A DNA stretch of 64,000 nucleotides from Planctomycetota bacterium (GTDB lineage: Bacteria > Planctomycetota > UBA8742 > UBA2392): the NCBI GenBank assembly GCA_027493625.1, contig JAOSKM010000001.1:1812657-1876656 (forward strand). Reading direction: 5' to 3'. The notes under the pieces were generated by a model. The model was not told where the DNA came from. It saw only the letters and a program-made list of their open reading frames with translations, and searched no databases. This document shows, piece after piece, positions 13,664 through 56,538 of this stretch. Both the position numbers and the translations under genes were made by a program. Each line of letters opens with the position of its first letter. The first letter of the stretch is position 1.

Positions 13664-13667
<4 letters not shown>

Positions 13668-13684
13668 GGACACGCGGCCGCGGT
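13664..13684. repeat. REP family A half copy (GTAG-GGACACGCGGCCGCG)
   Basis: The left arm and loop are identical to the full copy at 25830-25851. The right arm is lost. Confidence 0.6.
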
Positions 13685-13750
13685 AACCAAGGCCCGGGAT
13701 GCCCCTGTCCGACAAAGCCTTGGCGAAGTCGGAAATCCCGGGCGAATCAG
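13685..13750. repeat. REP family C copy with 30-nt insertion in the hairpin
   Basis: aaccaaggCCCGGGATGCC[30 nt]AATCCCGGGCGAATCAG compares with 19200-19237. The insert itself forms a tccgac/gtcgga stem. Confidence 0.65.
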
Positions 13751-13926
13751 AGCACCTTCATGGTTGGCCTGCAGGACAACGGCCCCAAAAGGGCTCCACT
13801 AAGGTAGCCGGGCGTATTCGCGCCCGGAGTTGTCCGGCCGTGTTCTCAGGCGCTCGAAGGGCGGCCTTCACCGCGCATCGCACTCTTCAGGCGGCCCTGC
13901 GGGCGCGCCTTCCGGGGCCATGGACA

Positions 13927-13950
13927 CCGGGGGCTTACGCCCCCGGCTAC
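13927..13950 (-). repeat. RAYT-type REP relative (GTAG + CCGGGGG-CGTAAG-CCCCCGG on minus strand)
   Basis: It has the same CGTAAG loop and G5/C5 stem as the hairpins flanking the RAYT gene (40257-40276, 40817-40836), with the arms swapped. Confidence 0.55.
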
Positions 13951-14402
13951 CGTAGCTGGGCCCTGCGGGCCCGAACTGCTGCAAACGAACCCTGAACGTG
14001 CTCAAGCTGTTCACTCACTGCGCCCGGCTGCAGTGCAACTGCGGTTGCCCACCAAGGACACCAAGGTTCACGAAGAAAAGCATTAGCCACGCGGGGGCGT
14101 GAAGGGCTGAGCGTTGCCCGGCCTTCACTTTTGGGTCTGAGCGGGAAGCAACGCCAGGGCGCCATGGTGCGCCACGGCTCTATCGTTGCCGCAAGTCGAT
14201 TGGACAATGGATGCACAGGCCACGGAAAGGCCGTGGCGTTCATGGCGTCATGGCGTTGGATGACGGTCCCTGAACACGAACCGTGTCCGAGCTGCGCAGG
14301 GCTCTTCGTTCCTTAGTTCCTTCGCGTTGCAGATGCAGTTGCAGTGCTTCGTGAACTTCGTGTGCTTCGTGGAGGATCGCTTCTTGCAGCCGGTTGCGGG
14401 GC

Positions 14403-15698
14403 CTATCCTGTCGCCAGCTCGCGCAGTTGCAGCGCCACCTCGCGCAGCTCCGGGTCGTGGCTGCTTTCCGTGACGTTCAGCTTCGCCCGCAGATCCTCGG
14501 CTTCTTCGGCCAGGAAGCGCGCGTCCTCGGCGTTGCCGGCCTGCTGCTCGATGCGGGCGTGCAGGGCGGTGCACTTCAGCCGGTACTGCTGCTCGGGCTT
14601 GTCGGTGCGATCAAGCACCTCGATTGCTTCCATCACGGCCTCGCGCGCGTCATCGGTCTCGCCCAGTTGAAGCAGCGCGCCGGCCTTCAGCCACAGCGAG
14701 TCAACCAGCATCACCGGGTAGCCTTCCTCGCGCGAGGTCTGTACCGCAAGCTCGGCGTGCTCCAGCGCCTGCCGCGGGTTGTGGCGGCGCAGGGCGATGC
14801 GGGCCAGCGCAACCGCGTTTGCCTGGCGCATGTAGCCGTCGGCGTTGCTGCCGACCAGATCGTTGGCCTTCAGGACGGCGTCGGCGGCTTCATCCAGCCG
14901 CTCGAGCATCACCAGCACAGCCGCACGCAGCGACAGTGCGCGCGCCTGCCGGCCCGGCATGTGCAGCGGCACGGTGATTCGGAGTGCCTCGTCGGTAAAC
15001 TCCATGGCGTCATCGAGCCGCCCCGCCGACTTGTGGACCTCCGCGAGGTTGATCAGGCCCAGCGCCAGGAAAGAGGGTTCGCCTAGCGCCTTGAAGATCG
15101 CGATCACCTGCTGCAGGCGGCTGATCGCCTCGTCGTAACGCCCCATCTCGTGCAGCAGCGACGACATCAGCCCCAGGCTGCGCGCCTGGCCGCTGCGGTC
15201 GCCGGTGATTTCATCCAGCTCGATCACCTCTTCCATCAGCTTCAGCGCCTGCTCCAGCAGTCCCTGGTCCTGCAGGATCTGCGACTGCAGGTGCAGCATG
15301 CGGTTGACGCCTGCCAGCTCGCCGATGTCGCGATACAGCCGGGCGGCGATCTGCGACTCGTCCTGGGCCATGTCCAGCCTGCCCATTTGGCGCAGGGTGA
15401 TGGCAAGGTTGGCGCGGGCGCGCACAGCCGCTCGCTTGTGGCCCCCGGCCTCAGCTCGCTCGAGGGCTTCGCGCAGCAGCGCCTCAGAGCGCGTGAAGTC
15501 AAAGTCGTACCGAACAGATACGCCCAGCCCGGAAAGCGCGTCGGCCTCGCTCTCCAGGTCGCCGGCGTCGCGCGCGAGGCGCAGGGCCGTTTCCCACATG
15601 TTGCGGGCCTCGATGCGCTCACCGCGGCGGTCGGCCTCCCAGGCTGCTTCCACCAGCTTGATGATCTGCGTGTCGGCAGTCGGCTTGTCTTGCGTCAT
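14403..15698 (-). CDS. tetratricopeptide (TPR) repeat protein
   Basis: 431 aa of consecutive 34-40 aa helical repeats with the A/L/G/Y TPR pattern (e.g. LGLMSSLLHEMGRYDEAISRLQQVIAIFKALGE). Confidence 0.75.
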   Translation of the reverse strand: MTQDKPTADTQIIKLVEAAWEADRRGERIEARNMWETALRLARDAGDLESEADALSGLGVSVRYDFDFTRSEALLREALERAEAGGHKRAAVRARANLAITLRQMGRLDMAQDESQIAARLYRDIGELAGVNRMLHLQSQILQDQGLLEQALKLMEEVIELDEITGDRSGQARSLGLMSSLLHEMGRYDEAISRLQQVIAIFKALGEPSFLALGLINLAEVHKSAGRLDDAMEFTDEALRITVPLHMPGRQARALSLRAAVLVMLERLDEAADAVLKANDLVGSNADGYMRQANAVALARIALRRHNPRQALEHAELAVQTSREEGYPVMLVDSLWLKAGALLQLGETDDAREAVMEAIEVLDRTDKPEQQYRLKCTALHARIEQQAGNAEDARFLAEEAEDLRAKLNVTESSHDPELREVALQLRELATG

Positions 15699-15759
15699 CT
15701 GGAGTCCCGGTGTCCCGGGCGACCATCATAGCACACGCGCAGGAAGCAGGGCCAGCGGC

Positions 15760-17064
15760 TCAGGTTTGAACCCAGGCGCAGATTGCCTCCGTGGCGGCAA
15801 CCACGTTGGGGCAGTGGGTGACCAGGAATTCTTCATTCACCTGGAAGTCTTCGCCGCGGCTCTCCAGGATCGCCATCGCGCGCGCGCCGTCGAAGTCCAC
15901 GTAGGCCAGTCGCGCCGTCAGCTCGGACGCCGGCCGGCCGAACTCGCTGCCCGGCAGGATCGCCACGCCGGTTTCATCCAGCAGCTTCTCGCACAGCTGC
16001 CGGCTGGTCTTCACGCCGCGCTCGGCCAGCAGCTCGGCGAAGGGCGAGAAATCGGGGAACAGGTAGAAGCCGCCCTGCGGGGCCAGCGTGCGGATCGCGC
16101 AGGCATTCAGCCGGCCTGCCATCCAGTTGCCCAGCGCCTTCAGCACCTTGCGCGCGCGCCACAGGTAGCGCTCGATTTCCGGCCCGCCGCGGAAGGCGCG
16201 CACGGCCGCGTACTGTATGGGCGCTGAAGTGCTGGTGTAGGTCTCGCTGGCGACGCTGGCCATGGCGTCCAGCAGCCAGCGCAGCTCGCGCGGGAAAGTG
16301 AAAGTGCCCAGCCGCCAGCCGCCCGCGCCGCACCACTTGCTGAGGCCCGAGCTGATGATGGTTCCCTTGGGGTAGTAGCGCGAAATGCTGAGGTGGCTGC
16401 CCTCATGGTGCAGCTCGCCGTAAATCTCGTCGCTCAGGAGCACCAGCTTGTGCTTCCTGGCCACGGCGGCGATCGCCTGCAACTGCTCGGCCGTGTAGCT
16501 GCGGCCGGTGGGGTTGCTGGGATAGTTGAGGATCACGACCCGCGGGCGGCCTTCGTCTTCGCTGCAGTGGGCGTCCAGCTGCTCGGCCGTGAGCATCCAG
16601 TCGTGGGCGGCGTCGGTGGGCAGGAAGGCGACGTTGCGCCCGATGATCTTCGCCTGCGGCGCGTAGCTGACCCAGGCCGGGGCGGGGATCACCAGGTCGC
16701 CGTAGTACACGAGTTGCAGGATGAACATCAGCTCTTTGCTGCCCGGGCCGATCAGCACGTCGTCGCCGGTTGACGCGCAGCCTTCGCCGCGGCGGTGGTA
16801 GTCGGCCACGGCCTCGCGCAGGGCGCCCAGGCCTTTCACCGGCAGATAGTCTTTCTGGTAGGCGTTGGCCTTGAGCTCTTCGACCACCGGTTCGGGCACC
16901 GGAAAGGGCGACTGGCCCAGGCCCAGCTTGTAGATGTTGCGGCCTTGAGCCAGCAGCGCGTTGCTGCGCTCGTTGATGGCCACCGTCGCGGACGGCTTCA
17001 TCCCGCGGATGTTCAGGTTGATGTGGACGTCGGGTGCGCGCGTGCTTTCGCTCGAGTCAGTCAT
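15760..17064 (-). CDS. class I/II PLP-dependent aminotransferase
   Basis: LSDEIYGEL and the PLP-lysine region SGLSKWCGAGGWRLG are present. The likely start is MTDSSEST at 17064 inside ORF 15760-17175. Confidence 0.8.
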   Translation of the reverse strand: MTDSSESTRAPDVHINLNIRGMKPSATVAINERSNALLAQGRNIYKLGLGQSPFPVPEPVVEELKANAYQKDYLPVKGLGALREAVADYHRRGEGCASTGDDVLIGPGSKELMFILQLVYYGDLVIPAPAWVSYAPQAKIIGRNVAFLPTDAAHDWMLTAEQLDAHCSEDEGRPRVVILNYPSNPTGRSYTAEQLQAIAAVARKHKLVLLSDEIYGELHHEGSHLSISRYYPKGTIISSGLSKWCGAGGWRLGTFTFPRELRWLLDAMASVASETYTSTSAPIQYAAVRAFRGGPEIERYLWRARKVLKALGNWMAGRLNACAIRTLAPQGGFYLFPDFSPFAELLAERGVKTSRQLCEKLLDETGVAILPGSEFGRPASELTARLAYVDFDGARAMAILESRGEDFQVNEEFLVTHCPNVVAATEAICAWVQT

Positions 17065-17098
17065 GACCCGAGTTTGCAAAACGAGGCCGACGATGGAA

Positions 17099-17172
17099 GT
17101 AGGGATACGCTGCCGCGTGTCCCTGCGAAGGGCGGATGTTCCGTGCGGGGACACGCTGCCGCGTGTCCCTAC
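17099..17172. repeat. two REP family A hairpins (GGGAYACGC-TGCC-GCGTGTCCC)
   Basis: Hairpins at 17101-17124 and 17147-17170. GTAG flanks lie at 17099 (+) and 17172 (-). Confidence 0.85.
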
Positions 17173-17315
17173 CACACGCGCGGCAGCCTTTGCGAGGACT
17201 GCGCGTCCTGCACCGTCTCGTGCTCTTCCAGCACGGTGCGCTCGCCGTAGGCGGTTTCCTGCACGATGGCCCAGCGGCCGGTGGCCTGCTGCTCGATCTT
17301 GAGTTCAGGGTCCAT
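17169..17315 (-). CDS. 48-aa hypothetical protein, not in the ORF track
   Basis: ATG 17315 is preceded by GGAGA with a 5-nt spacer (cccGGAGAtaaccATG). Sequence MDPELKIEQQATGRWAIVQETAYGERTVLEEHETVQDAQSSQRLPRVW. The stop TAG is part of a GTAG-REP. Confidence 0.35.
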   Translation of the reverse strand: MDPELKIEQQATGRWAIVQETAYGERTVLEEHETVQDAQSSQRLPRVW

Positions 17316-17553
17316 GGTTATCTCCGGGCGGATACCTTAACTATCGGCGCGACACGCCCGGCCCCTGTGCGGGATTTCTGGCTGAAATGTGGGGAAAATG
17401 AGGAAGCGGTGGCTGGTGGTTAGTGGCTGGATGGGCGCCGTTTCCAGCCACCAGCCGCTAGTACAGCGTCAGGCAAGCAGTCCGGCAGTTGGCCCATGTT
17501 CGGCGTCTGTTGCAGGGGACTCGCCGCCGCCCGGAAACAACAAACTGCAAAAT

Positions 17554-17607
17554 GCAACCACGAATAAACACAGGTGAACATGTGTACCTGTGTTCACCTG
17601 TGGTTGC
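17554..17607. terminator. imperfect long hairpin 3' of the MlaD-like gene
   Basis: gcaaccac...cacaggtgaaca pairs with tgttcacctgtggttgc. Confidence 0.4.
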
Positions 17608-17731
17608 TTTCAATCAGACCGCGCAGAGCCCACAGGACACGCGGAGAAGGACAAACTGCGTTCGCGGTTCTCAGCGCGCTCTGCGCGAGACCTTGTTTCC
17701 GTAACTATCGGATTTGATGGTTGACGCTGTA

Positions 17732-19257: not shown

Positions 19258-19261
19258 TAAC

Positions 19262-24242: not shown

Positions 24243-25712
24243 ATGTCCATGCGAGATCATTCGGCAAAGCCGAACTTGCCGCAGAAAAGCACTGCTTTTC
24301 AAGGCAAGTTCCAGGTCTACAGCAAGCAGCACCTCGAGACCTTGCCCCAGCTGCAGAAACTGACACCCGACCACCGCCTGGCCATGCGCGCCGTGGCGGA
24401 AGTGCTGCCCTTCCGCGTGAACAACTATTTGGTGGAAGAGCTGATCGACTGGGACAACGTCCCCAACGACCCCGTCTTCCAGCTCACCTTCCCGCAGCCC
24501 GGCATGCTGGCCCGTGAAGACTTCGGCCTGCTGTGCGGCATGCTCAAGCGCAACGCCCCCGCGGCCGAACTGGCAGCCGAGGTCAAGCGCATCCGCTATT
24601 CGCTCAATCCGCACCCGGCCGGGCAGAAGTCGCTAAACGTGCCGCACGAGAACGGCCAGCCCGTGGCGGGCATGCAGCACAAGTACCGCGAAACGGTGCT
24701 GTTCTTCCCCATGGCCGGCCAGACCTGCCACGCCTATTGCACCTACTGCTTCCGCTGGCCGCAGTTCGTGGGGCTGGACGACATGAAGTTCGCCAGCAAA
24801 GAGGCAGCCGGGCTGGTCGAGTACCTGAAAGCGCACAAGGAAGTCACCAGCGTGCTGATCACAGGCGGCGACCCGATGATCATGCGCACGCAACTGCTGC
24901 GGCAATACGTCGAGCCGCTGCTGGGCCCCGGGCTTGAGCACGTGGCAAGCATCCGCTTCGGCACGAAGGCACCGGCCTACTGGCCCTACCGTTTCACCCA
25001 GGGCGAAGACGCCGACGACCTGATGCGCCTGATTGGCGAAATCCGCGCCGCGGGCAAAGACGCGGCCATTATGGCCCACTTCAGCGTGCTGCGCGAACTG
25101 CAGACCGAGGTCGCCCAGGCGGCCGTGAAGCGGCTGGTGGGCGCGGGCGCGACGGTGCGCACGCAGGCGCCGCTGATCCGGCACGTGAACGACAACGCGG
25201 ACAACTGGGCGCAGATGTGGCGCAAGCAGGTCAGCCTGGGGGCGATCCCGTACTACATGTTCATCGAGCGAGATACCGGGGCGCGCGGCTACTTCGAGGT
25301 GCCCCTGTGGCGCGCCTACATGATTTTCACCGAGGCCTACCGGCAGGTGACCGGCCTGGCGCGCACGGTACGCGGCCCCAGCATGAGCTGCACGCCGGGC
25401 AAGGTGCTGATCAGCGGCGTGGCGGAGGTGAAGGGGGAAAAGGCCTTCGTGCTGAAGATGCTGCAGGGGCGCGACCCGGCCTGGGTGAACCAGGTGTTTT
25501 TCGCCAGGTACGACCAGCGCGCGGCGTGGATGGATCAGCTGAAGCCGGCCTTCGGCGAGCAGGAGTTCTTCTTCGAGGAAGGCATGCGCCAGATGCTCGA
25601 AAGCGGCGAGGCGCGCGTGTGGCTGCCCACGGAAGTGGACGCCCTGGAAGAAACCTGGCGCATGGAAAGCGTAGAGCCCGACCACGAACACGACCGCAAG
25701 CGCGACAAGTAG
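24243..25712 (+). CDS. KamA-family radical SAM protein (lysine 2,3-aminomutase-like), paralog 1
   Basis: AAGGAG RBS. The CHAYCTYC (CxxxCxxC) cluster lies within AGMQHKYRETVLFFPMAGQTCHAYCTYCFRW. The stop TAG is inside a GTAG-REP. Confidence 0.8.
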   Translation: MSMRDHSAKPNLPQKSTAFQGKFQVYSKQHLETLPQLQKLTPDHRLAMRAVAEVLPFRVNNYLVEELIDWDNVPNDPVFQLTFPQPGMLAREDFGLLCGMLKRNAPAAELAAEVKRIRYSLNPHPAGQKSLNVPHENGQPVAGMQHKYRETVLFFPMAGQTCHAYCTYCFRWPQFVGLDDMKFASKEAAGLVEYLKAHKEVTSVLITGGDPMIMRTQLLRQYVEPLLGPGLEHVASIRFGTKAPAYWPYRFTQGEDADDLMRLIGEIRAAGKDAAIMAHFSVLRELQTEVAQAAVKRLVGAGATVRTQAPLIRHVNDNADNWAQMWRKQVSLGAIPYYMFIERDTGARGYFEVPLWRAYMIFTEAYRQVTGLARTVRGPSMSCTPGKVLISGVAEVKGEKAFVLKMLQGRDPAWVNQVFFARYDQRAAWMDQLKPAFGEQEFFFEEGMRQMLESGEARVWLPTEVDALEETWRMESVEPDHEHDRKRDK

Positions 25713-25851
25713 GGACACGCTGCCGCGTGTCACGCACCACAACCGGGGACAGGCACGTTCCGTGCCTGTCCCCATTCCGCGTTCATGGCACGTAGGGACA
25801 CGCTGCTGCGTGTCCCCGGATGGCGGGCAGGGACACGCGGCCGCGTGTCCC
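25709..25851. repeat. cluster of four REP family A hairpins
   Basis: Hairpins at 25712-25733, 25745-25773 (GGGGACAGGCAC-GTTCC-GTGCCTGTCCCC), 25795-25817 and 25830-25851. Confidence 0.9.
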
Positions 25852-40229: not shown

Positions 40230-40863
40230 GCCTGCGGAGCAGGCCAACAACCGTTAGCCCCCGGCGTAAGCCGGGGGTATCGGAGCACCAAAGATTCCAG
40301 AGCCGCGGAGCGGCGACACAACTCATTCGCCAATGAACTCCGGGTCACCAATGAAGTCATACTTCTCCAGCAACCGCCGCAACTCTTCCTGCAAGGAAAC
40401 CGTAGCGTGGTGCTCCTGCTGGTTCTTGATGTAGTCCACGACCATGCCGACATGGCTCTGGCTGATGGAGAAGCCGCCATAGCCTCGCTGCCAGCCGAAT
40501 TTCGATGTTCGCAACTCTTCGTTCATGTGGCGGGACGAGTTCGCCTTCAGCTTGTTGACCACGTCCGCCAGCGCCAGCGTGGCGGGTAAATCAATCAGCA
40601 GGTGTGTGTGGTCGGAGACGCTGTTCAGGCGATGCAGGTAGACGTTCAGGTTCTTGAGCACGCCGACCATGTAACCTTCGAGCTTGGGTTTGAGGTCCGG
40701 CGTGATGATTGCGGTGCGGTCTTTGGTCGCGAACACAAGGTGCACCAGCAGCCGGGTGTAGGTATGCGCCATTTGTGTCGCCGCTCCGCGGCTCGGGTGA
40801 ACGGGCGGCATGATACCCCCAGCTTACGCTGGGGGCTAACGGTTGTTGGCCTGCTCCGCAGGC
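40230..40863 (-). mobile_element. RAYT unit: Y1 transposase gene bracketed by nested inverted repeats
   Basis: The outer 52-bp IR is 40230-40281 / 40812-40863 (50/52, the two differences are compensatory in a hairpin). The inner perfect 20-bp IR is 40302-40321 / 40773-40792. Confidence 0.8.
40323..40772 (-). CDS. IS200/IS605-family Y1 (HUH) transposase homolog, REP-associated (RAYT-like)
   Basis: MAHTYTRLLVHLVFATKDR...SDHTHLLI (HUH-type) ...FGWQRGYGGFSIS (Tyr region) ...QQEHH. The start is at 40772 inside ORF 40323-40811. Confidence 0.85.
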   Translation of the reverse strand: MAHTYTRLLVHLVFATKDRTAIITPDLKPKLEGYMVGVLKNLNVYLHRLNSVSDHTHLLIDLPATLALADVVNKLKANSSRHMNEELRTSKFGWQRGYGGFSISQSHVGMVVDYIKNQQEHHATVSLQEELRRLLEKYDFIGDPEFIGE

Positions 40864-46251: not shown

Positions 46252-46276
46252 GCGCGACCCTGGGGAAGTAAAAGGA

Positions 46277-46353
46277 GGGACAGGCACCTCGGTGCCTGTC
46301 CCTCTTCACTTTGCGCGCCCGTGCCGTGCACACAAGGGGGACAGGCGCGTTCC
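46277..46353. repeat. REP family A: one full hairpin plus a half copy
   Basis: gggacaggcac-ctcg-gtgcctgtccc at 46277-46302. gggggacaggcgcg at 46336-46353. Confidence 0.85.
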
Positions 46354-46376: not shown

Positions 46377-47687
46377 CTATTCGTGCTTTTCGAACTTCTG
46401 GATGTCCTCGGGCTTGAGGTACTGGCGCACGTCCTTGATCAGCATGTCCGGCGCCAGCCAGTTCACGCCCTGCACCTCCGCGAGCGCGGGCGGCACGTAG
46501 GTACAGTAGGGCTCGCTGGCCAGGTAGTCGCCGGTCACCGCGAACGCCCGTGAGCGCGCGCCGCCGCACACATCGCGGTAGTCGCAGGCCCAGCACTTGC
46601 CCTTGAGCCGCGAAAAGTCGCGCATCGCCTTCAGGTGCGGGTTGTTGCGGTAGATCTCGACGATCGACTTCTCCTTCACGTTGCCGCACTTCAGCGGCAG
46701 AAAGCCGCTGGGGTACACCTCGCCCACGTGGTCAATGAAGATGAAACCGTTGCCGTCGTTCACGCCGCGGCCGGCACGCCCGATCGCGTCGCCGCGCGAC
46801 CAGCCGCCCGGCTTCATGTCGCGCAGCACCCAGGCGGGCGGGCCATCGGACTTGCGATCCTCGGGGCTGCCCTCACCGCTGCGGGGGCGCAGGTACTTGC
46901 CGCTGTCGTTGCTGCGCCCTTCGCTGCGCTGGTGCTGCAGCACCACGCGCCGGTAGTGGGGTGCTGCCGTGGTCTTGAGGTCGAAGTCGGCCTTCTTGGC
47001 CGTCTCGTACAGCTTGTTGAGCGCCTGCTCGTATTGCTCGGGGCTGATTTCGTCGGTCTCTTCGCCGCGGCCGGTGGGCACCAGGAAGAACGCGGCCCAC
47101 AGCGTGAGGCCCAGCTGCTGCATCAACTCGCACAGGTTGTCGATGTCGTTCATGTTCCAGCGCGAGATGGTGGTGTTGATCTGGACGGTCAGGCCCTCGG
47201 CCTGCGCGTCCTTGATCGCGCGGATGGTGTGGTCGTAGCTGCCGGGCTGGCGCCGGAAGTTGTCGTGGATCTCGGCTGTTGACCCGTCAAGGCTGATGGC
47301 CATGCGCGTCAGCCCGTTCTGCTTCATCTCGTGGATGGCCTCGCGCGTGAGCAGGCCGGTGGCGCTGGGCGTGACGGCCACGCGCAAGCCGATGGAGTCG
47401 GCGTACTTGATGTACTCCATGGTGTAGGGCGATTTTAAAGGATCGCCGCCGGTCAGCACGAACAGCGGCGGCGCTGTTTCGCTGAAGGCGCGCAACTCGT
47501 CGATCAGTTTAAATCCCTGCTCCTTGGTGAGCTCGCGCTCGTCGCGGTTGGGGATGGCCTCGGCGCGGCAGTGCACGCAGCGCAGGTCGCAGGCGCGGGT
47601 GACCTCCCAGATCGCGATGAACGGCGCCTTCTCGAAGTCGATGTCGAAGAAGTTGGGCTTGCTGCGGTGTTCTACGGATTTCGCCAT
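46377..47687 (-). CDS. radical SAM/SPASM domain protein
   Basis: GGAGG lies 5 nt upstream of ATG 47687. The CDLRCVHC (CxxxCxxC) cluster is present. The C-terminal Cys-rich SPASM-like region reads CGNV...CWACDYRDVCGG...CTY. Confidence 0.75.
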   Translation of the reverse strand: MAKSVEHRSKPNFFDIDFEKAPFIAIWEVTRACDLRCVHCRAEAIPNRDERELTKEQGFKLIDELRAFSETAPPLFVLTGGDPLKSPYTMEYIKYADSIGLRVAVTPSATGLLTREAIHEMKQNGLTRMAISLDGSTAEIHDNFRRQPGSYDHTIRAIKDAQAEGLTVQINTTISRWNMNDIDNLCELMQQLGLTLWAAFFLVPTGRGEETDEISPEQYEQALNKLYETAKKADFDLKTTAAPHYRRVVLQHQRSEGRSNDSGKYLRPRSGEGSPEDRKSDGPPAWVLRDMKPGGWSRGDAIGRAGRGVNDGNGFIFIDHVGEVYPSGFLPLKCGNVKEKSIVEIYRNNPHLKAMRDFSRLKGKCWACDYRDVCGGARSRAFAVTGDYLASEPYCTYVPPALAEVQGVNWLAPDMLIKDVRQYLKPEDIQKFEKHE

Positions 47688-47769
47688 CACGGCCTCCAAC
47701 CCCGCATGATAACGCCCTGATGCAATGCCGCCATGGCGGTGCAGGCTGTGGAAAAGCGGCCGTCAACCT

Positions 47770-47868
47770 GGGACGGGCACGGAATGTGCCTGCCCCTGTC
47801 CATGGCTGCTGTGGGGCGTGCCATGGGTGTGCACAGTAAAGAGGGACGGGCACCAAGGTGCCCGTCCC
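47770..47868. repeat. REP family A: degenerate copy plus perfect GGGACGGGCAC-CAAG-GTGCCCGTCCC
   Basis: Copies at 47770-47796 and 47843-47868. Confidence 0.8.
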
Positions 47869-47879
47869 TGTGCGCGGCT

Positions 47880-49082
47880 TTACCTTCTTCCGCCGCCGCC
47901 GCCGCCGCCGCCCCTGCCGCCGCCGCCGCCTCCGCCGCCGCCGCCCCTGCCGCCGCCGCCGCCTTGCCCTCTACCTTGTCCCCGCCCTTGTCCTCCGGCC
48001 TTTCCTTGCCCCCTGCCCTGCCCGGGACCGCCGTTGCGGGCCTGGTTCCGACCGCGCACCCTGGCCCGGTTGCGTGCGGGGTTGGGTCCGCCCGGCCCTG
48101 CGCGGCCGTCATCGGCGTCGTCCTCGGGGTCATCCTTGGGCGGCCTGGTGGTCTTGTCGGGCGGCAGTATCGGCGGGTCGTCGTTCGGTTTCTCGACAAT
48201 CGGCGGCGGCGGCGGTACTTCGGACTTCTTCTCGACCGGCGTCTCCACCTTCACCTCTTTCGGCTTCTCAGGCCGCGCCTCGACTGCAGCCTCGGTTTTC
48301 TTTTCAGCCCGCGGCGTGCTCTCCGGTTCCGGTTCCGGTTCGGGCTGCTGCACGGCCTCGGTTTTCCTTTCGGCCCGCGGCGTGCTCTCCGCTTCCGGTT
48401 CGGGCTGCTGCGCGGCCTCGGTCTGCCCGCGCCCGCCTCTCCAGCGCAACGCGCGTCCGAGGCCCATGCCCAGCCCCGGCCCCTGGCCCATTCCCGGGCC
48501 GCCGGCATTGGTCGCCGGCTGCTCCACCACGCCGCTCTCCGCCTTGCCCTCCAGGCTGCGGATGTAGGCCACCAGGTGGCCGATCTGCTCTTCACCCAAC
48601 GCCTTGCCGTAGGCCGGCATGGCAGACTGGAAGGGTGCAAACCCGCCGCCCTCGCTGATGCGCCACCACAGATAGTCGTCGTTTACACCGGCCAGGAATG
48701 CACTGTCTGCCAGCTTGGCCGCCGCCGGGCGCAGCCCCTGCCCCATCGGCGAGCCGGCGCCCGCCGCGCCATGGCAGCCGGAACACTGGCGCGAATAGAT
48801 CGCCCTGCCCTCCGTTGCGTCACCGGGCGTCTTGCCCTTGAACCGCTCCGGCGCCTGCGGGCGATCAAGCGTCGCGGTCGCCGACGCCTTCTGCGGCGCC
48901 GGCGTGCCGGGCGGCGTGACCGCCGTGGACGTCGGCGGGGGCGCCGTCTGCGGCAGAACCGAGGCCGTGGTCTGCGGCGCAGCCTGTGACGCCGACTCGG
49001 GCTGGTCGCCGCTGCAGCCGGCAACAAGCAGCCCGGCAGCCAGCAGCAGGCCGGCCGACACAATGAGGTGCTTTACTTTCAT
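47880..49082 (-). CDS. c-type cytochrome lipoprotein with long disordered tail ending in Arg/Gly (RGG, poly-Gly) repeats
   Basis: Lipobox LLVAGC. Heme site CSGCH with the distal ...AMPAYG. The start is at 49082 inside ORF 47880-49139. Confidence 0.7.
   Translation of the reverse strand: MKVKHLIVSAGLLLAAGLLVAGCSGDQPESASQAAPQTTASVLPQTAPPPTSTAVTPPGTPAPQKASATATLDRPQAPERFKGKTPGDATEGRAIYSRQCSGCHGAAGAGSPMGQGLRPAAAKLADSAFLAGVNDDYLWWRISEGGGFAPFQSAMPAYGKALGEEQIGHLVAYIRSLEGKAESGVVEQPATNAGGPGMGQGPGLGMGLGRALRWRGGRGQTEAAQQPEPEAESTPRAERKTEAVQQPEPEPEPESTPRAEKKTEAAVEARPEKPKEVKVETPVEKKSEVPPPPPIVEKPNDDPPILPPDKTTRPPKDDPEDDADDGRAGPGGPNPARNRARVRGRNQARNGGPGQGRGQGKAGGQGRGQGRGQGGGGGRGGGGGGGGGGRGGGGGGGGRR
47890..47960. 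repeat. (CCG)n trinucleotide tract encoding poly-Gly/Arg at the cytochrome C-terminus
   Basis: cgccgccgccgccgccgccg cccct gccgccgccgcc... Confidence 0.9.
48289..48414. repeat. 66/60-nt in-frame tandem duplication within the cytochrome tail
   Basis: The units gcctcggttttc(t/c)ttt..cgggctgctgc(a/g)cg encode QQPEPE(PEPE)STPRAE(K/R)KTEA twice. Confidence 0.85.
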
Positions 49083-49382
49083 ATGCTTGCACTCCCGGCT
49101 GCCTTGCGGGATGGTCAAACCGCGTGCACCGCCGCCCACGGCAGCCGGCGAATGGGCGGATGCGCACGTGAACGCAGAACGATCGGCGGGCGGGACGACT
49201 TTTCCCGATCATCCGGAACAGCCCGAAAAAACCCCCGGCATTGCTCGATGCTGCAACCATTGAGACAGGGAGCTGCCCGCGCGCGGCGGCCGAAAACACG
49301 GTTTCCGGGACGGGCTCGGGCGGATCCGGCGTTTCGCCCTTAACCGTCCGCCGCCCGTCCCGGACTCAACGTGGAGGCCGCC

Positions 49383-50723
49383 ATGCCGATTGCGCCTCAA
49401 CTTCGCTTCTACACGGCGCGTGACATCGACAGCCTGCCGCAGCTGCAGGCCCTGCCCGCCGAGCAGCGCCTGGACATGAAAGCCGTCGCGGCCGTGCTGC
49501 CCTTTCGCGTCAACCAGTACGTGATCGACCAGCTGATTGACTGGTCGAACATCCCGTCCGACCCGATCTTCCAGCTCACGTTCCCCCAGCGCGGCATGCT
49601 CAGCGAGCACAACTTCAAGCTGATGCGCGAGCTGATCGCCAAAGGCGCGCCACAGGCCGAAGTGAAAGCCGCGGCCGAGAAAATCCAGCGTTCCCTGAAC
49701 CCGCACCCCTCGGGCCAGATCAACCTGAACGTGCCGCTGGACGCCCAGGGCAAGCGCCTGCCGGGCATGCAGCACAAGTACCGCGAAACCGTGCTGTTCT
49801 TCCCGATGGCCGGCCAGACCTGCCACAGCTACTGCCAGTACTGCTTCCGCTGGGCGCAATTCGTGGGCCTGCAGGACCTCAAGTTCGCGGCCCGCGAGGC
49901 CGAGCAGCTGGTCGAGTACCTGAAGCGCCACAAGGAAGTCACCAGCGTGCTGTTCACGGGCGGCGACCCCATGGTGATGGGCGCGCCCGTGCTGCGCCGC
50001 TACATCGAGCCGCTGCTGGGCAAGGGGCTCGAGCATGTCCAGAGCATCCGCATCGGCACCAAGGCGCCGGCGTACTGGCCCTATCGCTACACCAGCGACG
50101 CGGACGCCGACGACGTGCTGCGGCTGTACGAGCAGGTGCAGGCCTCGGGCCGCACCATGGCGCTGATGGTGCATTACTGTCATCCGCGCGAGCTGCAGAC
50201 CGAGGCCGCGCAGGCGGCGCTGAAGCGCATGCGGGATTCGGGCGCCGAGGTGCGCTGCCAGGCGCCGCTGATCCGGCACATCAACGACAACCCGGAAACC
50301 TGGCGCGAACTGTGGGACCTGGAGGTACGCCTGGGCGCGCATCCCTACTACATGTTCGTGGAGCGCGACACCGGCGCGCGCGGCTATTTCGAGGTGCCGC
50401 TGGTCAAGGCCTACGAGATCTACTCACAGGCATATCGCTCCGTGACGGGTCTCGCACGCACGGTGCGCGGGCCGGTGATGTCCTGCATGCCGGGCAAGGT
50501 CGTGGTGGATGACGTGACGGAGTACGGCGGCGAGCAGGTGATCGTGCTGAAGATGATCCAGGGCCGCAACCCGGAGTGGGTGAACCGCACGTTCCTGGCA
50601 AAGCGCGACGACAAAGCCACCTGGTTCGATCAGCTCAAGCCCGCCGGCAAACCCTGGTTCTTCGGCGACGAGCTGCAGCAGATGATCGAAAGCGGCAACG
50701 CCCGGCCGTGGGAGAACGTGTAG
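49383..50723 (+). CDS. KamA-family radical SAM protein, paralog 2
   Basis: GGAGG lies 5 nt upstream of ATG 49383. The CHSYCQYC cluster is present. The protein is colinear with 24243-25712. The stop TAG is inside a GTAG-REP. Confidence 0.8.
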   Translation: MPIAPQLRFYTARDIDSLPQLQALPAEQRLDMKAVAAVLPFRVNQYVIDQLIDWSNIPSDPIFQLTFPQRGMLSEHNFKLMRELIAKGAPQAEVKAAAEKIQRSLNPHPSGQINLNVPLDAQGKRLPGMQHKYRETVLFFPMAGQTCHSYCQYCFRWAQFVGLQDLKFAAREAEQLVEYLKRHKEVTSVLFTGGDPMVMGAPVLRRYIEPLLGKGLEHVQSIRIGTKAPAYWPYRYTSDADADDVLRLYEQVQASGRTMALMVHYCHPRELQTEAAQAALKRMRDSGAEVRCQAPLIRHINDNPETWRELWDLEVRLGAHPYYMFVERDTGARGYFEVPLVKAYEIYSQAYRSVTGLARTVRGPVMSCMPGKVVVDDVTEYGGEQVIVLKMIQGRNPEWVNRTFLAKRDDKATWFDQLKPAGKPWFFGDELQQMIESGNARPWENV

Positions 50724-50748
50724 GGACAGATACCTTGGTGCCTGCCCC
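50720..50748. repeat. REP family A degenerate copy with GTAG prefix
   Basis: gtagggacagatac-cttg-gtgcctgcccc. Confidence 0.65.
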
Positions 50749-50770: not shown

Positions 50771-51631
50771 TCAGGAAGTGAGAGGCGCCTGCGATACCTG
50801 TCCTTCGTTCGAACTGAGAACGGCCGGCACCCAATTCAGGTTCAGCTCCGCGAGGTTCAGCACCTCGCCGTCAAAGATGCGCCATTCGTCGCCGTGACGC
50901 AGCAGCAGGCGCGTGACCGGGTAGCCGTGGTCTTCGCGTTCCATACGCACGCTGCGGTACACGTGAACCCGCAAGGTGACGCGCGCTATGCCATCGCCAA
51001 GCATTTGTACGTCAGAAGAGGCCTTCAGCACCAGCCGCGAACCGGGCCCCAGCACACGCGCCGCGCGCCAATAGGCAGCGAAAGACGCCACACTGTCGAA
51101 TGAGTAACGCTTGATGCTAAGGGGATCGTGCCTGGCGGCCGATGGCGCGGCCCGCAGGTAACTGTCCTTGTCCACCGCTGCCAGCAGCCTGTAGGCGCGC
51201 CGGAAATCGGCCCGGTTGATGCAGTGGACAAACTCCCGCATGCAATCCGAGGGCGAACGGGCGCCGGTCCGTGAGGCGGCCAGAGCGCCGTGGCTGAACA
51301 GCACCGCGGCGATGGGAGCCGAGAGAATCAGGATGAACGACGCGCCGTAAATCAACCCCAGGGCCAGGGAGCCAGCCAGTTCCACGAGCGCGATCCCCAT
51401 CAGCGCAATCGGCCAGAGGAGCGCGCGCCCTGCCGGCTCGTCCTGGTTGTTGCCCTGCAGCCACTGGATCAGTTTCCATTGCGCGCGCTGGTTCGCGAGC
51501 GCCAAGTCGTCGTAAACGACCAGGGGTCCCACCTGCCGGGCAGGCGGGATCTCCCCGTAGGGGCGCAGATTGACGGGCTGATCGTTCACGCGCCGGCTCC
51601 ACCACCGCATCAATTTTACGAACAGCCGCAC
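50771..51631 (-). CDS. hypothetical membrane protein with C-terminal NTF2/SnoaL-like-looking domain
   Basis: Two central TM helices. The C-terminal 120 aa (FVHCINRADFRRAYRLL...LLLRHGDEWRIFDGEV) are suggestive only. Confidence 0.4.
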   Translation of the reverse strand: MRLFVKLMRWWSRRVNDQPVNLRPYGEIPPARQVGPLVVYDDLALANQRAQWKLIQWLQGNNQDEPAGRALLWPIALMGIALVELAGSLALGLIYGASFILILSAPIAAVLFSHGALAASRTGARSPSDCMREFVHCINRADFRRAYRLLAAVDKDSYLRAAPSAARHDPLSIKRYSFDSVASFAAYWRAARVLGPGSRLVLKASSDVQMLGDGIARVTLRVHVYRSVRMEREDHGYPVTRLLLRHGDEWRIFDGEVLNLAELNLNWVPAVLSSNEGQVSQAPLTS

Positions 51632-51645
51632 CGGTTGTGGTTCGT

Positions 51646-53121
51646 CTACAGCACCGGGCTCAGCAGCTGGAAGAACTGCTGCAGGAAGCGCAGCAGGAAG
51701 GGGCGGGCTCGCCAGCCCTCAAGTTGCAGCGCGCGTGAGCCCTCAATGTACCTCTGCTGCAGCGCGCGCACCCGCGCGGCGAAGTCGCCGTCGTACACCA
51801 GCAGCGAGATCTCGAAGTTCAGGTAGAAACTGCGCATGTCCAGGTTCACCGTGCCGAACATCGCGATGCGGCCGTCAACGGTGATCGCCTTGGTGTGCAG
51901 CACGCCGCCGTCGAAACGGGTGATCTTCACGCCGCCCTCCAGCAGCTCTTCGAAGTACGCCTCGCCTGCCAGCCGGACCACCCGGCTGTCCGAGCGGCGC
52001 GGAACCACCAGCGTCACTTCCACGCCGCGCGCGGCCGCGGACAGCAGCGCCTTGATCATGGCCTCGTCCGGGATGAAGTAGGGCGAGGTCAGCACCAGCT
52101 CGCGCTCGGCGGCATAGATCGCGGTCAGGATCAGCTCCTGGATGGTCGCCTGCGGCATGCCGGGCCCCGACGGCACCACCTGCACGATCGCGTCCCCCAC
52201 CAGCGCGTTGCGGCGCAGGTCGAACCTGTCGGCCGCGGTCTCGATGCCCTCGTAGGTCTCGAACTCCCAGTCGGCCAGCAGCGTGACCTGCAGGGCCTCC
52301 ACGGCCGGGCCGGTGACGCGCACCATGGCGTCGATCCACTCGCCGATTTCGGAATCCTGCCGGAACAGGGCGGGGTCTGCCATGTTCTGGCTGCCGGTGT
52401 AGCCGATCTCGCCGTCGATCACGGCGATCTTGCGGTGGTTGCGCAGGTCGATGCGCGCGAACAGCGTGCGCACCACGCCCACGTTCAGCATAGTGACTAC
52501 CTTTACGCCGCCGTTGCGCAGGTTGCCGATGCTGGGGTGCTTGATGAAATCGTCGGCGCCCACGTCGTCCACCAGCACCCGGCAGGTGACGCCACGAGCG
52601 GCCGCGTTCAGCAGCGCGGCCACCACGTCGTTGACGCGGCCGCCTGGCTCCCAGATGTAAAACTCCAGGTGCACGGATGACTTCGCGGCGTTGATGTCGG
52701 CGATCAGGCGGTCGAAGAAGGCGTTGGCCTCCTCGATCAGCTCAAGGGAATTGCCGGGCAGGGCGGGAATGCCGGTGGTGCCGCGCGCCGTGCGGCGCAA
52801 CAGCACGGCGCCGTGGCTGAGGGTGCTGTCGTCGCAGGGGAAGTCGCGGCTGAGGCCATCCAGCCAGATGCCGTAAGGCTCGCGCAGCTCGGCGATGCGG
52901 CGGGCGCGGCGTGTGCCCAGGCGGCGCTCGCCCAGCAGCAGGTAGATCAGCGCGCCCAGCAGCGGCAGAAGCAGGATCACGCCCAGCCACGCCAGCGTGA
53001 AGCCCACGGTGCTGCGGCGCATGATCACGCGGATGCCCAGCACGATGCGGATCAGCCAGTCAAGCGCCAGCAGCACGATCGCGACTGAGTAGGTGCCCTC
53101 CTGCAGGAAGTATCTGTACAT
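51646..53121 (-). CDS. cls: cardiolipin synthase (two HKD motifs)
   Basis: HRKIAVIDGEIGYTGSQN and HTKAITVDGRIAMFGTVN. N-terminal TM helices. The start is at 53121 (GGAG RBS) inside ORF 51646-53289. Confidence 0.85.
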   Translation of the reverse strand: MYRYFLQEGTYSVAIVLLALDWLIRIVLGIRVIMRRSTVGFTLAWLGVILLLPLLGALIYLLLGERRLGTRRARRIAELREPYGIWLDGLSRDFPCDDSTLSHGAVLLRRTARGTTGIPALPGNSLELIEEANAFFDRLIADINAAKSSVHLEFYIWEPGGRVNDVVAALLNAAARGVTCRVLVDDVGADDFIKHPSIGNLRNGGVKVVTMLNVGVVRTLFARIDLRNHRKIAVIDGEIGYTGSQNMADPALFRQDSEIGEWIDAMVRVTGPAVEALQVTLLADWEFETYEGIETAADRFDLRRNALVGDAIVQVVPSGPGMPQATIQELILTAIYAAERELVLTSPYFIPDEAMIKALLSAAARGVEVTLVVPRRSDSRVVRLAGEAYFEELLEGGVKITRFDGGVLHTKAITVDGRIAMFGTVNLDMRSFYLNFEISLLVYDGDFAARVRALQQRYIEGSRALQLEGWRARPFLLRFLQQFFQLLSPVL

Positions 53122-53172
53122 GGCTCCGCCGCGTGAGACTCGCGTCGCAGTATACAGGCGCCAAGGCCCGCA

Positions 53173-53306
53173 GGGACAGGCACCCTTTTCACGGTGCAAG
53201 TTCGGCTTTGCTGGTGCGATGAACGCTGACCGGGGACAGTCACCAAGGTGACTCTCCCCGGTTGTGGGAAATGAAGAGGGGACAGGCACGCAACGTGCCT
53301 GTCCCC
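53173..53306. repeat. three REP family A copies
   Basis: 53173-53197 (half copy), 53231-53262 (ggggacagtcac-caag-gtgactctcccc) and 53278-53306 (perfect). Confidence 0.85.
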
Positions 53307-53325
53307 GGTCGTGGCTGATCTGCCG

Positions 53326-55014
53326 TTACTTCTGCTTCCAGCGTTCGGGAATGGTGCCTTCCCAGCCGTACTTGTCGAGCTTGACCTTCAGCTCTTTCAC
53401 CTCTTCGCCGCGCTTGATGCGCACGGTGACCTCGGTGCCCGGGTCCATGCTGGCCGCGAACATGATGATGGCCGGCATGTCGCGCACCACCACGTCGCCG
53501 TTCTCGCTGCTGGCGTCTTCCATGCCTTCTTCGGGCATCAGGGCCGCCAGGTTCACCAGGTGGGTGATGATGTCGCCCTTCTGGATGCCCGCCTTGGCCG
53601 CAGCGCCGCCTTCTTCCACTTCTTCGACCAGCATGCCGCCGTGCTCAAGGCCGTGCTTCTTCCAGTCGTCGAGGGGGACGGCGTCGCCGGTGAGGGCGAA
53701 CTTGCCGGCCTTGCCGTGCCAGGTGCGGATCACGGCGTCCTTCACGAACTCTTCGCTGGCGAAGGGGGAAGCCGCGTTCTCGGCGCCCTTCTCGTAGGCG
53801 ACGAACTCGATCTCCTTGCTGGCGGTGTTGACGATCATCTTGTGGTAGCGGGCCGCCAGCGAGATGCCGATGATGCCGTCGAAGTCCAGCACGATTCCCC
53901 GCTGCTTCAGCATGGGCAGGAACATCTTGATCATGTCCGGCATCTGGTCGCTCATCTTGGGCAGCGCCATGATGGTGCAGGGCAGGTCTTCTTCCTTCAG
54001 GTTGCCGATCTCGAAGCTTTCCACCATGCTGGACTTGGCCTCACCCTTGCCGACGCCCTTGACCGGGTAGCCGAAGCTCTCGGTCAGCTTCAGCTCGGTG
54101 CCCAGCTCGTCGCTGAGCGCCAGCAGCATCGAGGCGCCGGTGTCGAACATGAAGGTCTTCTCGACGCCGTTCAGCTTGGCCTTCACGTACCAGTAGGGCA
54201 CCAGCTCGCCGATCATCGGCAGGCTGACCGTGGTGTACTTCAGGGTCTGGCCTTCGCTCGGGCCCTTGGCGGCTTCGGCCGCCTCGGTCTTGCGCTCTTC
54301 TTCCTGCAGCAGGAAGAACTGGCCGAAGGGCTGCATGGGGCCGATCGAGAACTCGTCGTCCTTGCCGGGTTCTTCTTTCGGATCGCCTTTCCTGGGGCCG
54401 GGCAGTCCGGGGATGCCCGGGATGCCGCCGCCGCCCTCGAGCATGCTGATGATCGTGGCGTCGGCGTCGTTTGGCATTTCGTCGGCGCCGTACCTGGTGA
54501 TGCTGAGCTTGTGGGCGGCGAAGTCGATCTCGACTTCCTTCATCATGCGGATCACGTTCTGGCCCACGATGCCCATCATGTGCCAGCCCAGCGTGCCGGA
54601 CATGTGGTCGAGGTTCATGCTGGCGGCCACGCACTTGCCGCGCTCGTAGCTGCCGATCTGCATGTTGTCGAGCACCACCAGCTTGGCCTCGGCGGTGCCG
54701 ACGCCCTGCACGCCGCCGCCCGGCATGTCGTGCTCTTTGAGGCCGAACTCCTTGGTGAGGCGCTGGTTGATCACGGACTGGGTGGCGCCGCTGTCAAACA
54801 GGAACTTGTAGGGACCTTTGCCGTTGACCTTGACCTGGATGAAAATCAGGCCTTCGAACTCGAAGGGCACGGTCAACCCGTCGCCCTCGGGCTCGGCTTC
54901 GGTCTTCTCTTCCTCGGCCGGCTTGGGGGCGTCCTGGGCGCTCGTGATCGTGCACGGCGCGAGCAGTGCGGCCAGCATCGCAACGGCCAAAAGTGTCTGC
55001 AACCAACGCTTCAT
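53326..55014 (-). CDS. secreted protein with two retropepsin-like aspartyl protease domains and C-terminal PDZ domain
   Basis: Signal peptide. FLFDSGATQSVI and FMFDTGASMLLA (DSG/DTG active-site loops). PDZ segment GAAAKAGIQKGDIITHL. Confidence 0.7.
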   Translation of the reverse strand: MKRWLQTLLAVAMLAALLAPCTITSAQDAPKPAEEEKTEAEPEGDGLTVPFEFEGLIFIQVKVNGKGPYKFLFDSGATQSVINQRLTKEFGLKEHDMPGGGVQGVGTAEAKLVVLDNMQIGSYERGKCVAASMNLDHMSGTLGWHMMGIVGQNVIRMMKEVEIDFAAHKLSITRYGADEMPNDADATIISMLEGGGGIPGIPGLPGPRKGDPKEEPGKDDEFSIGPMQPFGQFFLLQEEERKTEAAEAAKGPSEGQTLKYTTVSLPMIGELVPYWYVKAKLNGVEKTFMFDTGASMLLALSDELGTELKLTESFGYPVKGVGKGEAKSSMVESFEIGNLKEEDLPCTIMALPKMSDQMPDMIKMFLPMLKQRGIVLDFDGIIGISLAARYHKMIVNTASKEIEFVAYEKGAENAASPFASEEFVKDAVIRTWHGKAGKFALTGDAVPLDDWKKHGLEHGGMLVEEVEEGGAAAKAGIQKGDIITHLVNLAALMPEEGMEDASSENGDVVVRDMPAIIMFAASMDPGTEVTVRIKRGEEVKELKVKLDKYGWEGTIPERWKQK

Positions 55015-55192
55015 AAGGTGTTTCCTCCGTATCGCTTACCTTCGACTGTTACGAACAGGCCACAGGCCGCAGGTAAAGCATGTTGTCCGATTGACGCCCC
55101 TAGTCGGGCCTGTCACGGGAACCTCACGCGAAAAAACGGCGAGGTCAGAAGTTGGCGGCAAGGTTGCCTGTCCCTTCCGTCGACCAACCTGC

Positions 55193-56497
55193 ATGATCGC
55201 GACCATGGTCGAGCAAGATTCATCCACGAGGCCCCATCCATTTGACTGCCCTTCGTGCGGGGGCGCCGCTGCATCTCTCCGTCGGCTCTGCCGTGCCGGT
55301 GTGCACCCACTGCGGGAAAGAGCTGGGTGAACCGGCGCCGGTGGCTTCCCCGCGAGCTTGACGTACAGTTTCAGCAGGCGCTCAGCCGGCACGAACGGGA
55401 TTGCGGAAGGGGACGTCACCGGCTGGACCTGTTCGGAGTGCGGGGCAGTGGTCGCGAACGCCGCCGGCAACATGGCCCGCTGCGAGTTCTGCGGCAGCAG
55501 CCACCTGGTGCTGACCCGGCAGGTGCTGGGCACGCTGAAGCCCGACGGCATGCTGCTGCCGAAGCTCACCCGCGCAGAGGCACTTGAGCGAATTGTGGCC
55601 TGGTGTCGTGCTGGTCGTCTGTAACGAAGCGATCTTCTGCTTGCGAGCGTCCGATTGCCGCGGGGCTTCCACCTGCATCCTGAGGCCGTGAAAGTGATCT
55701 GGCTGCCGTTGTTCGATTTCGAATTGACCGTCGACTGCAAACCCGACGACTTCAAGCCCATCCACCCAAAAGCCGACCTTCCGGGCGACTTACCGCTACC
55801 CCTGAGGGGACGTACTCGCCCTTACCCGGCGCTGGCGCGCGGCGTCGCGCCCCGGCTGTGGTCGATCCTCCGCGCACCCCGGGCAGAACCCGTACCCTTC
55901 ATGGTGGAAGCACTCGCCGGCTACCACTTGATACCGGCGAACCTGGATCCGGAGATGGCCTGGAAGGAAGTGCGACTGCCGCTGGACCTGGAGTTGTATG
56001 GTCAGTACGACCAGATTCTGCGGCAACGGAAGCTGGTTGCGCAGGTCGGCTACCACAAGTTCCCGCGCCAGTTGTCGTTCCGGCTGCTGCTGGCGCCGCT
56101 GTACATCTGCCTGACGAAAACGGTTCACAACGCCCGAGTGGCGGTTGCTGTCGATCCTGTGGACGGGCAGATCACCGTCTACGCGGTGGATGACGCGAAG
56201 CTGGCGGAGGATGCTTACGGCGCGCTGATCCACGGCTTTTTCAGCGAGCGCCCGATCAGCGAAGGGACACCCGAGCCGGAGCCCGCACAGCCGGTCGCCC
56301 CGGTGGAAATGGGCTGGGATGGCGAGTTTTCTTTGCGCGGCGTGCTGATGGCGCTGGTTGTGTTCGCTATGCCCCTTGGCATAGGCCTGGTTGCATTAAC
56401 AGGCTTGACGATGCAGGGCAAACTGCTCGCCGCCCTCGGCGTCTGCGTGGCCGGCTTCTGCCTGGGGGCTTTGCTCAGGTTCATGATGTGGGAGTGA
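55193..56497 (+). pseudogene. double zinc-ribbon plus C-terminal TM protein, disrupted by about 3 frameshifts and an in-frame TAA
   Basis: The pieces lie in three frames: FDCPSCG(APL..)..VCTHCGKEL, then RELDVQFQQALSRHER, then WTCSECGAVV..ARCEFCGSSHLV...KPDGMLLP. TAA at 55622-55624 interrupts the frame shared with ORF 55655-56497. Confidence 0.55.
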
Positions 56498-56505
56498 GAA
56501 AGCGA

Positions 56506-56538
56506 CCGGGGACAGGCACGTTCCGTGCCCGTCCCCGG
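56506..56538. repeat. REP family A hairpin between convergent genes
   Basis: ccggggacaggcac-gttcc-gtgcccgtccccgg. Confidence 0.85.

Follow-up and report, generated by a model that had tools for sequence, protein, structure and literature searches.

A GTAG-tagged REP family on stop codons in a Planctomycetota genome, and an untagged hairpin family alongside it

The DNA analysed here, called the window throughout, is a stretch of 64,000 nucleotides from a Planctomycetota bacterium (C1:1812657-1876656; genome of 4.72 Mb, 65% G+C, six contigs) which carries, between positions 13664 and 56538, a series of short hairpins at or near the ends of genes, among them genes for a kinase-like and two KamA-like proteins. 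An initial annotation had taken these hairpins for two variants of one repetitive extragenic palindromic (REP) family, with a GTAG in front whose TAG doubles as the stop codon of four genes. Pattern searches recovered the hairpins where they had been reported, except that 53173-53197 holds only the left arm of a copy of the second type, and GTAG was found before the copies at 13664, 17099, 25709, 25792 and 50720, and CTAC (17169-17172) after the copy ending at 17169. All four reported overlaps with a stop codon hold, three of them in the list below and the fourth in the open reading frame (ORF) 49371-50723. The two variants, which differ in tag, stop overlap and T-rich tails, are not one family and are treated here as family A and family B. 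Family A is represented in the window by five full copies and one half copy of GTAGGGACACGC-N4-GCGTGTCCC(TAC), and a search allowing up to two mismatches gave five matches against 0.02 expected from shuffled sequences:

13664-13684, plus strand: half copy with GTAG, left arm and loop, the right arm degenerate; TAG 13665-13667 is the stop of the kinase-like ORF 9276-13667 (1463 aa)
17099-17124, plus strand: left member of a doublet, GTAG-GGATACGC-TGCC-GCGTGTCCC, core 17102-17123
17147-17172, minus strand: right member of the doublet, core 17148-17169, with CTAC at 17169-17172; CTA 17169-17171 is the TAG stop of a 48-aa gene, 17169-17315 (minus strand)
25709-25733, plus strand: copy preceded by GTAG, core 25712-25733; TAG 25710-25712 is the stop of the KamA-like ORF 24243-25712 (489 aa)
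25792-25817, plus strand: intergenic copy with GTAG, core 25795-25816
25830-25851, no strand assigned: copy without GTAG and with GCA in front, the core spanning the same positions

A fuzzy search of the whole genome with the same tolerance of up to two mismatches found 65 copies of family A at 43 loci (29 singles, 8 doublets and 6 larger clusters), the core being perfect in 46, and in an unbiased count of perfect hairpins GGGACACGC was the commonest stem of the genome with 46 copies. The flanks of these copies define the full element as the palindrome GTAGGGACACGC-N4-GCGTGTCCCTAC. GTAG does precede copies, as the initial annotation had it, but it is not only a prefix: GTA/TAC flanks both sides of 19 of the 65 copies, and in these symmetric copies GTAG pairs with CTAC, which extends the stem to 12 bp with these as its outermost 4 bp. 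It flanks one side in 36 copies and neither in 10, so that 55 of 65 have it on at least one side, and its commonest replacement is GCA. The predicted RNA fold has a free energy of -24.1 kcal/mol (z -6.3). Genes were predicted with a purpose-built codon-usage ORF caller (3916 genes covering 82% of the genome); 59 of the 65 copies lie in the intergenic 18%, where 23 are in convergent, 33 in tandem and 3 in divergent gaps. As convergent gaps make up only 20% of intergenic bases, the bias towards gene 3' ends is real, and the median distance to a gene 3' end is 31 nt. Family A therefore has both the 3'-end bias and the GTAG enrichment whose absence the initial annotation had named as grounds for abandoning the idea.

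The tag also coincides with stop codons more often than chance would allow. The TAG stop of a called gene is supplied by 19 of the 74 GTAG ends of family A, at 17 of the 43 loci, and at two loci a single cluster stops both convergent genes. It counts against this tally that the gene calls rest on a crude home-made caller; in a caller-independent test, frame 0 was open upstream for at least 200 codons 22 times, the counts for the other two frames being 4 and 3 (binomial p=3e-6). The frame-0 bias was repeated in related Planctomycetota loci (17 against 2 and 6, with at least 100 codons), which come from kin and are not independent samples. Throughout the genome a perfect hairpin is 4.4 times commoner behind TAG stops than behind TGA or TAA. 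Approximately 4500 GTAGs lie outside coding sequence, 789 of which are stops.

One explanation for the overlap, which the initial annotation had also raised, is that a repeat carrying its own GTAG inserts randomly near gene ends, where in-frame hits create a stop and remodel the C-terminus and the harmless ones are kept. This predicts about two read-throughs for each stop, yet at most 7 ends of family A lie inside coding sequence against the 19 at stops. We compared 18 repeat-stopped genes with their orthologues, using one chimeric query of 15 C-termini and additional single-gene searches. The congeners are metagenome-assembled genomes labelled Planctomycetota bacterium (Bin_90R, HK-STAS-PLAN-36); three of them (G009, G010 and G013) are free of the repeat, and G011 is a repeat-bearing sister of the genome studied (G000); all four entered the comparison. 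Eleven of the genes are identical in length to the repeat-free orthologues; in four more the difference is 1-2 aa, seg13 falls short by 6 aa and the tails of the remaining two have diverged. In G009, TAG terminates 15 of the 18 orthologues, at the matching position or a few codons away, an excess over the genome background of approximately 40% for which simple arithmetic gives p ~2e-4 if G009 is assumed to use stops as G000 does, itself a point of weakness. With lengths mostly unchanged and TAG already in place in G009, the repeat appears to occupy pre-existing stops, and the C-termini have mostly not been remodelled.

Individual genes are consistent with this. The half copy at the end of the kinase-like gene (seg14) is also present in G011, and TAG stands at the same codon in three repeat-free congeners. 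The G009 orthologue of the KamA-like ORF 24243-25712 has the same length and ends in gag TAG without a repeat. A gene resembling lipoamide dehydrogenase ends in ...ECVHL in all relatives, and at that point 13 repeat-free ones read (C/T)TG-TAG or have TAG after a comparable codon. For seg0 the downstream flanks can be aligned, and the repeat begins directly after the TAG. At the sole clean presence/absence site between G000 and G011, 103 extra bases follow an existing AAG-TAG-GGA. The 48-aa ORF, which begins MDPELKIEQQATGRWAIVQE..., is conserved at 81-98% identity and a constant 48 aa in six congeners and is thus a real small gene; its TAG is already at that stop in four repeat-free congeners. 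Judged from these alignments, the family A repeat sits on stop positions, mostly TAGs, that are older than the repeat, and protein lengths are mostly unchanged.

Several observations weigh against pre-existing stops and would suit random insertion. Besides seg13, seg12 is 2 aa shorter than its repeat-free orthologues, and for seg7, seg12 and partly seg10 the repeat-free relatives have TGA or TAA; at seg7, the gag-TAG of the repeat-bearing genomes corresponds to gac-TGA in the relatives. Beside the repeat, TAG invariably follows a G, and approximately 60% of the TAGs in empty orthologues have G in front. As several empty sites have another base there, the repeat may supply that G, either bringing it or converting the existing base. 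The 48-aa gene ends in two codons that deviate only in repeat-bearing genomes, where they resemble an arm of the REP and look repeat-derived. The evidence from junctions is limited to a few sites; the single clean G000/G011 polymorphism, with GTAGGGA ahead of the inserted bases, has an ambiguous junction, and flank searches in both directions placed most loci in both genomes. We nevertheless consider random insertion an unlikely origin of the overlap, given the constancy of length, the TAGs already terminal in G009 and the shortage of copies within coding sequence.

The initial annotation had likened the hairpins around a REP-associated tyrosine transposase (RAYT) gene in the window (40323-40772, minus strand) to those studied here. 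This gene was ruled out as a partner of either family, as its flanking hairpins, GTTAG-CCCCC(A/G)GC-GTAA/TTAC-GC(T/C)GGGGG, differ. The RAYT flanked by family A lies outside the window on another contig, at C3:125157-125746, with five copies upstream and three downstream. This ORF, designated RAYT-A, was located because clusters of family A bracket it and not through Pfam; it has the HUH (MPNHFHGIL) and tyrosine (RFYDHVIRDE) motifs, and its own stop is the TAG of a REP. It counts against its assignment that it falls below the cut-offs of both Pfam PF01797 (21.1 bits, cut-off 23) and NCBIfam NF047646 REP_Tyr_transpos (52.4 bits, E 5e-14, cut-off 80), so it would be missed in routine annotation; it has 2075 homologues, many of which carry the name RayT. 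The G+C content at its third codon positions (GC3) is 0.60 against 0.885 +/- 0.037 for the genome, which points to horizontal acquisition.

Family A copies flank RAYT-A likewise in G011 (93% identity) and G015 (58% identity). Among 30 relatives, the number of family A copies tracks the presence of RAYT-A: the four genomes with the gene have 58 (the genome studied), 63 (G011), 17 (G015) and 55 (G016, 43% identity), two incomplete genomes in which it was not found have 24 and 9, and the 24 others, including the congeners G009 and G010, have none or one. The pair of family A and RAYT-A was probably acquired horizontally and expanded to approximately 65 copies at 43 loci. A Pfam search with Y1_Tnp gave 24 matches in the genome studied, none of which adjoins a copy of family A or B; the better matches are each flanked by hairpins of their own, for example (G)TAG-CCGGGGGC-GYAA-GCCCCCGG, GGCCCGACA and GCCACGGGC. 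The RAYT gene of the window is among these. There are 24 Y1/HUH (RAYT-like) genes in 4.7 Mb, most of them bracketed by private hairpins (GCCACGGGC, GGCCCGACA, GCCCCCTGC and GCCCGGGGT; examples at C2:783125-783718, C1:184377-184892, C2:91614-92093 and C2:754197-754703), and several of these private families are abundant in the genome.

Family B provides an internal control within the same genome. The window holds eight or nine copies of GGGACAGGCACC-N3-5-GGTGCCTGTCCC, two of them perfect:

25745-25773, plus strand: perfect copy amid the family A copies
46275-46304 (pattern 46277-46302), minus strand: copy in a convergent gap with the tail CTTTTACTTC, -32.7 kcal/mol; terminator-like for minus-strand transcription, behind gene 46377-47699 (minus strand)
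47770-47796, no strand assigned: degenerate copy
47842-47869 (pattern 47843-47868), minus strand: copy that looks like a terminator, behind gene 47880-49082 (minus strand)
50720-50748, plus strand: degenerate copy abutting TAG stop 50721-50723 of the KamA-like ORF 49371-50723 (450 aa)
53231-53262, no strand assigned: copy of a subtype, the 'B2' partner of a pair, with flanks ...gaacgctgac / cggttgtgg
53278-53306, minus strand: perfect copy that looks like a terminator, behind gene 53326-54978 (minus strand)
56506-56538, no strand assigned: copy between the convergent genes 55655-56497 (plus strand) and 56558-57379 (minus strand)

The stop overlap claimed for the second KamA-like gene, ORF 49371-50723, stands in that its TAG is abutted by a hairpin, but this hairpin is a copy of family B; in the G012 orthologue the corresponding TAG is accompanied by a perfect B copy. 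Genome-wide, family B has approximately 55 copies at a median distance of 21 nt from a gene end, as close as family A, but GTA/TAC is found at only 1 of its 110 ends and stop overlap in 1 of 44 against 19 of 56 for family A (Fisher p=4e-5). A T-rich tail, defined as at least five T within 9 nt after the stem, follows 20 of 55 copies (36%), its orientation matching the upstream gene by 8:1; the other 35 have no such tail. A partner gene was looked for, and no Y1 or RAYT gene adjoins any B copy, the genes between paired copies being ordinary. The near absence of the tag, the rarity of stop overlap, the T-rich tails and the lack of an adjoining Y1 gene together separate family B from family A, and many B copies look like intrinsic terminators.

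In a different reading, the hairpins are ordinary intrinsic terminators that happen to have a common stem sequence and are not mobile. The T-rich tails of family B and their orientation would fit, as would the absence of a RAYT beside it and the fact that the best three terminator-like sites between 44 and 58 kb of the window are B copies. Only 7 of the 65 family A copies have such a tail, however; family A has a RAYT that it flanks and is patchy among congeners, and identical stems at approximately 55 B sites would still require a copying process. We therefore regard this reading as very improbable for the hairpins as a whole.

Another possibility is that position is set by function, a hairpin abutting the stop being selected because it tunes termination or protects the mRNA 3' end. 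REPs of Escherichia coli are found within 15 nt of the stop, a parallel reported in PMC12306157 from its reference 17. The hairpins are very stable, both families crowd gene 3' ends and most loci have been kept between G000 and G011, all of which this idea would accommodate. Family B, however, is equally stable and equally near gene ends and yet rarely abuts stops, which argues that there is no general pressure on hairpins to do so; and the copy number of family A follows the RAYT, falling to zero in close congeners where these genes are retained. Selection for function is, like random insertion, a poor candidate for the overlap.

Taken together, we think it likely that family A is a GTAG-tagged REP with its own RAYT-A that has settled on pre-existing stops, and that family B is separate. 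How the copies would reach the stops can be proposed by analogy with the insertion sequences of the IS200/IS605 group (IS608, ISDra2), which have a related Y1 enzyme and hairpin ends and integrate directly 3' of a fixed tetra- or pentanucleotide, always to the left of the element (summarised in PMC3479197). Family A copies lie where insertion is tolerated, just 3' of genes, and new copies may be laid down directly behind a (G)TAG that is already there. The genome uses TAG more than any other stop (39% of called genes and 43% of high-scoring ones, with TGA at 38-42% and TAA at 18-19%) and G precedes half of the TAG stops; stop codons would therefore be the most abundant harmless GTAG landing sites, and the stop would be borrowed by the repeat and not made by it. 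Unlike the IS200/IS605 elements, family A repeats contain no gene; their transposition is putative, and the case for GTAG as a target is a comparative one. A model in which the 22-nt core enters GTAC with duplication of TA was dropped, as the 3' flanks of the stop-abutting copies do not have the expected TA(G/A).

The analogy with E. coli that the initial annotation drew is apt in that, in the REP/BIME system of that species, the Y1/HUH gene TnpA-REP likewise has copies of its REP on either side (PMC2817692, PMC3479197), with a conserved GTAG at the 5' foot of the hairpin that the protein binds (PMC3479197), and REPs have been found immediately 3' of rayt stop codons (Nunvar, 2010; PMC2817692). 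Unlike the E. coli system, RAYT-A is below the cut-off of the curated RAYT model and the hairpin of family A is shorter and perfectly paired. A further point against the scheme above is that in E. coli cleavage occurs at CT and GTAG acts as a guide pairing with that site, not as the target (PMC3479197), whereas for family A a role of GTAG as landing site is a proposal drawn from comparison of genomes, and RAYT-A would be a candidate for cutting or joining there. In symmetric copies, the CTAC opposite GTAG would supply the CT of a cleavage of the E. coli type.

Doublets, a single-copy RAYT and a copy number tied to the RAYT also recall the REPIN/RAYT systems of Pseudomonas, for which Bertels and Rainey in 2011 reportedly described a doublet unit, a RAYT in single copy and copy numbers linked to it. 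Unlike REPINs, the cores of a family A doublet are direct and not inverted, as judged by their loops, and RAYT-A looks horizontally acquired. We know of no experiment in which the site choice of RAYT-type elements has been demonstrated.

That GTAG REPs supply TAG stops is already published. GTAG-tagged REPs have been described in eight phyla including Planctomycetes, with the statement that their GTAG termini often provide TAG stops (Di Nocera, De Gregorio and Rocco, 2013; PMC3733652). Like family A, these repeats, which include SMAG of Stenotrophomonas maltophilia, are short stem-loops with a terminal GTAG, occur as singles, doublets and clusters and lie in unidirectional or convergent gaps near 3' ends; their tag is presented in that paper as unpaired, whereas in family A it is paired with CTAC in the symmetric copies. 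The paper lists 24 families, and family A is likened to this superfamily by description, not by stem sequence. The paper includes no comparison of orthologues to establish which came first, stop or repeat, such as was applied here to family A. The headline observation is thus textbook REP biology and its value confirmatory; what is added is the direction of causality drawn from orthologues, in that the repeat comes to the stop and not the stop to the repeat, which bears on site choice by RAYT-type elements, and the control provided by an untagged family. A practical consequence for annotation is that a stop lying in a family A repeat is a true one, and that the sequence of the repeat is not to be annotated as an extension of the C-terminus. 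A literature search with the palindrome string returned only chance primer matches.

The palindrome is also found well beyond the genus. The exact 25-mer of family A occurs in at least 100 stretches from many phyla, and outside Planctomycetota the loop becomes CATG, giving a perfect 28-bp palindrome, GTAGGGACACGCCATGGCGTGTCCCTAC. At least ten other phyla have it, including Bacteroidota, Ignavibacteriota, Stahlbacteria, Chloroflexota, Patescibacteria, Acidobacteriota and Verrucomicrobiota; the carriers (loci L002-L103) have 1-13 copies per genome and include the isolates Flavisolibacter longurius and Labilibaculum euxinus. The copies outside Planctomycetota show no frame-0 stop bias, and the reading frame often continues through them as V-GTRHGVSL. 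Of 75 palindrome copies, six are located within RAYT ORFs, in the stretch that separates the HUH and tyrosine motifs. In other taxa, different GTAG-GG... palindromes stand beside the homologues of RAYT-A, and in a Pfam search of eight other palindrome-bearing genomes the top RAYTs had no family A flanks. It is a tentative and rather doubtful suggestion that RAYT-A and the palindrome travel between phyla as a pair that integrates beside GTAG, with several REP families competing for GTAG anchors; if true, the harmless GTAGs of TAG-rich Planctomycetota are stops, hence the accumulation of copies on gene ends.

A number of smaller observations concern the same elements. The same GTAG, usually a stop, is followed by different hairpin families in different genomes, for example at the dehydrogenase stop in G025 (L162) and between G000 and G011 or G012 (G000 C1:2182171-2182462 against L015, and G000 C1:1585030-1585165 against L019), as if one REP family had taken the place of another at fixed GTAG anchors. 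At G011:C1 ~7375-7480 (L230, seg2), four tandem ggggactgtcccaggttc units follow a gene whose G000 counterpart has a family A copy at its end. Family B copies are often paired, one having a T-run and the second, of another subtype, lying approximately 40 nt away, with the flanks ccatgaacgctgaaag ... cggttgtgg (C1:43233/43283, 1193323/1193382, 1948580/1948645 and 1950104/1950172; 53231-53306 in the window), which suggests a composite unit of approximately 90 nt. At L006, L025, L038, L045, L090 and L103 the palindrome is in frame within the loop between the HUH and tyrosine motifs of a RAYT (GTRHGVS..., PPHGVS repeats), and palindromes translated inside RAYT ORFs are often accompanied by degenerate or tandem partial copies; others are in frame in a Tgt-like gene (L086), an HsdM-like gene (L033) and further genes. 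At L272 and L273, RAYT-A homologues (41-43% identity) lie directly 3' of the type I restriction gene hsdM with a 4-nt overlap, followed by a weak Methylase_S (hsdS-type) gene at L272 and a Vsr gene at L273, and GTAGGGGCGACCGGCCGGTCGCCCCTAC palindromes are found in or beside these genes.

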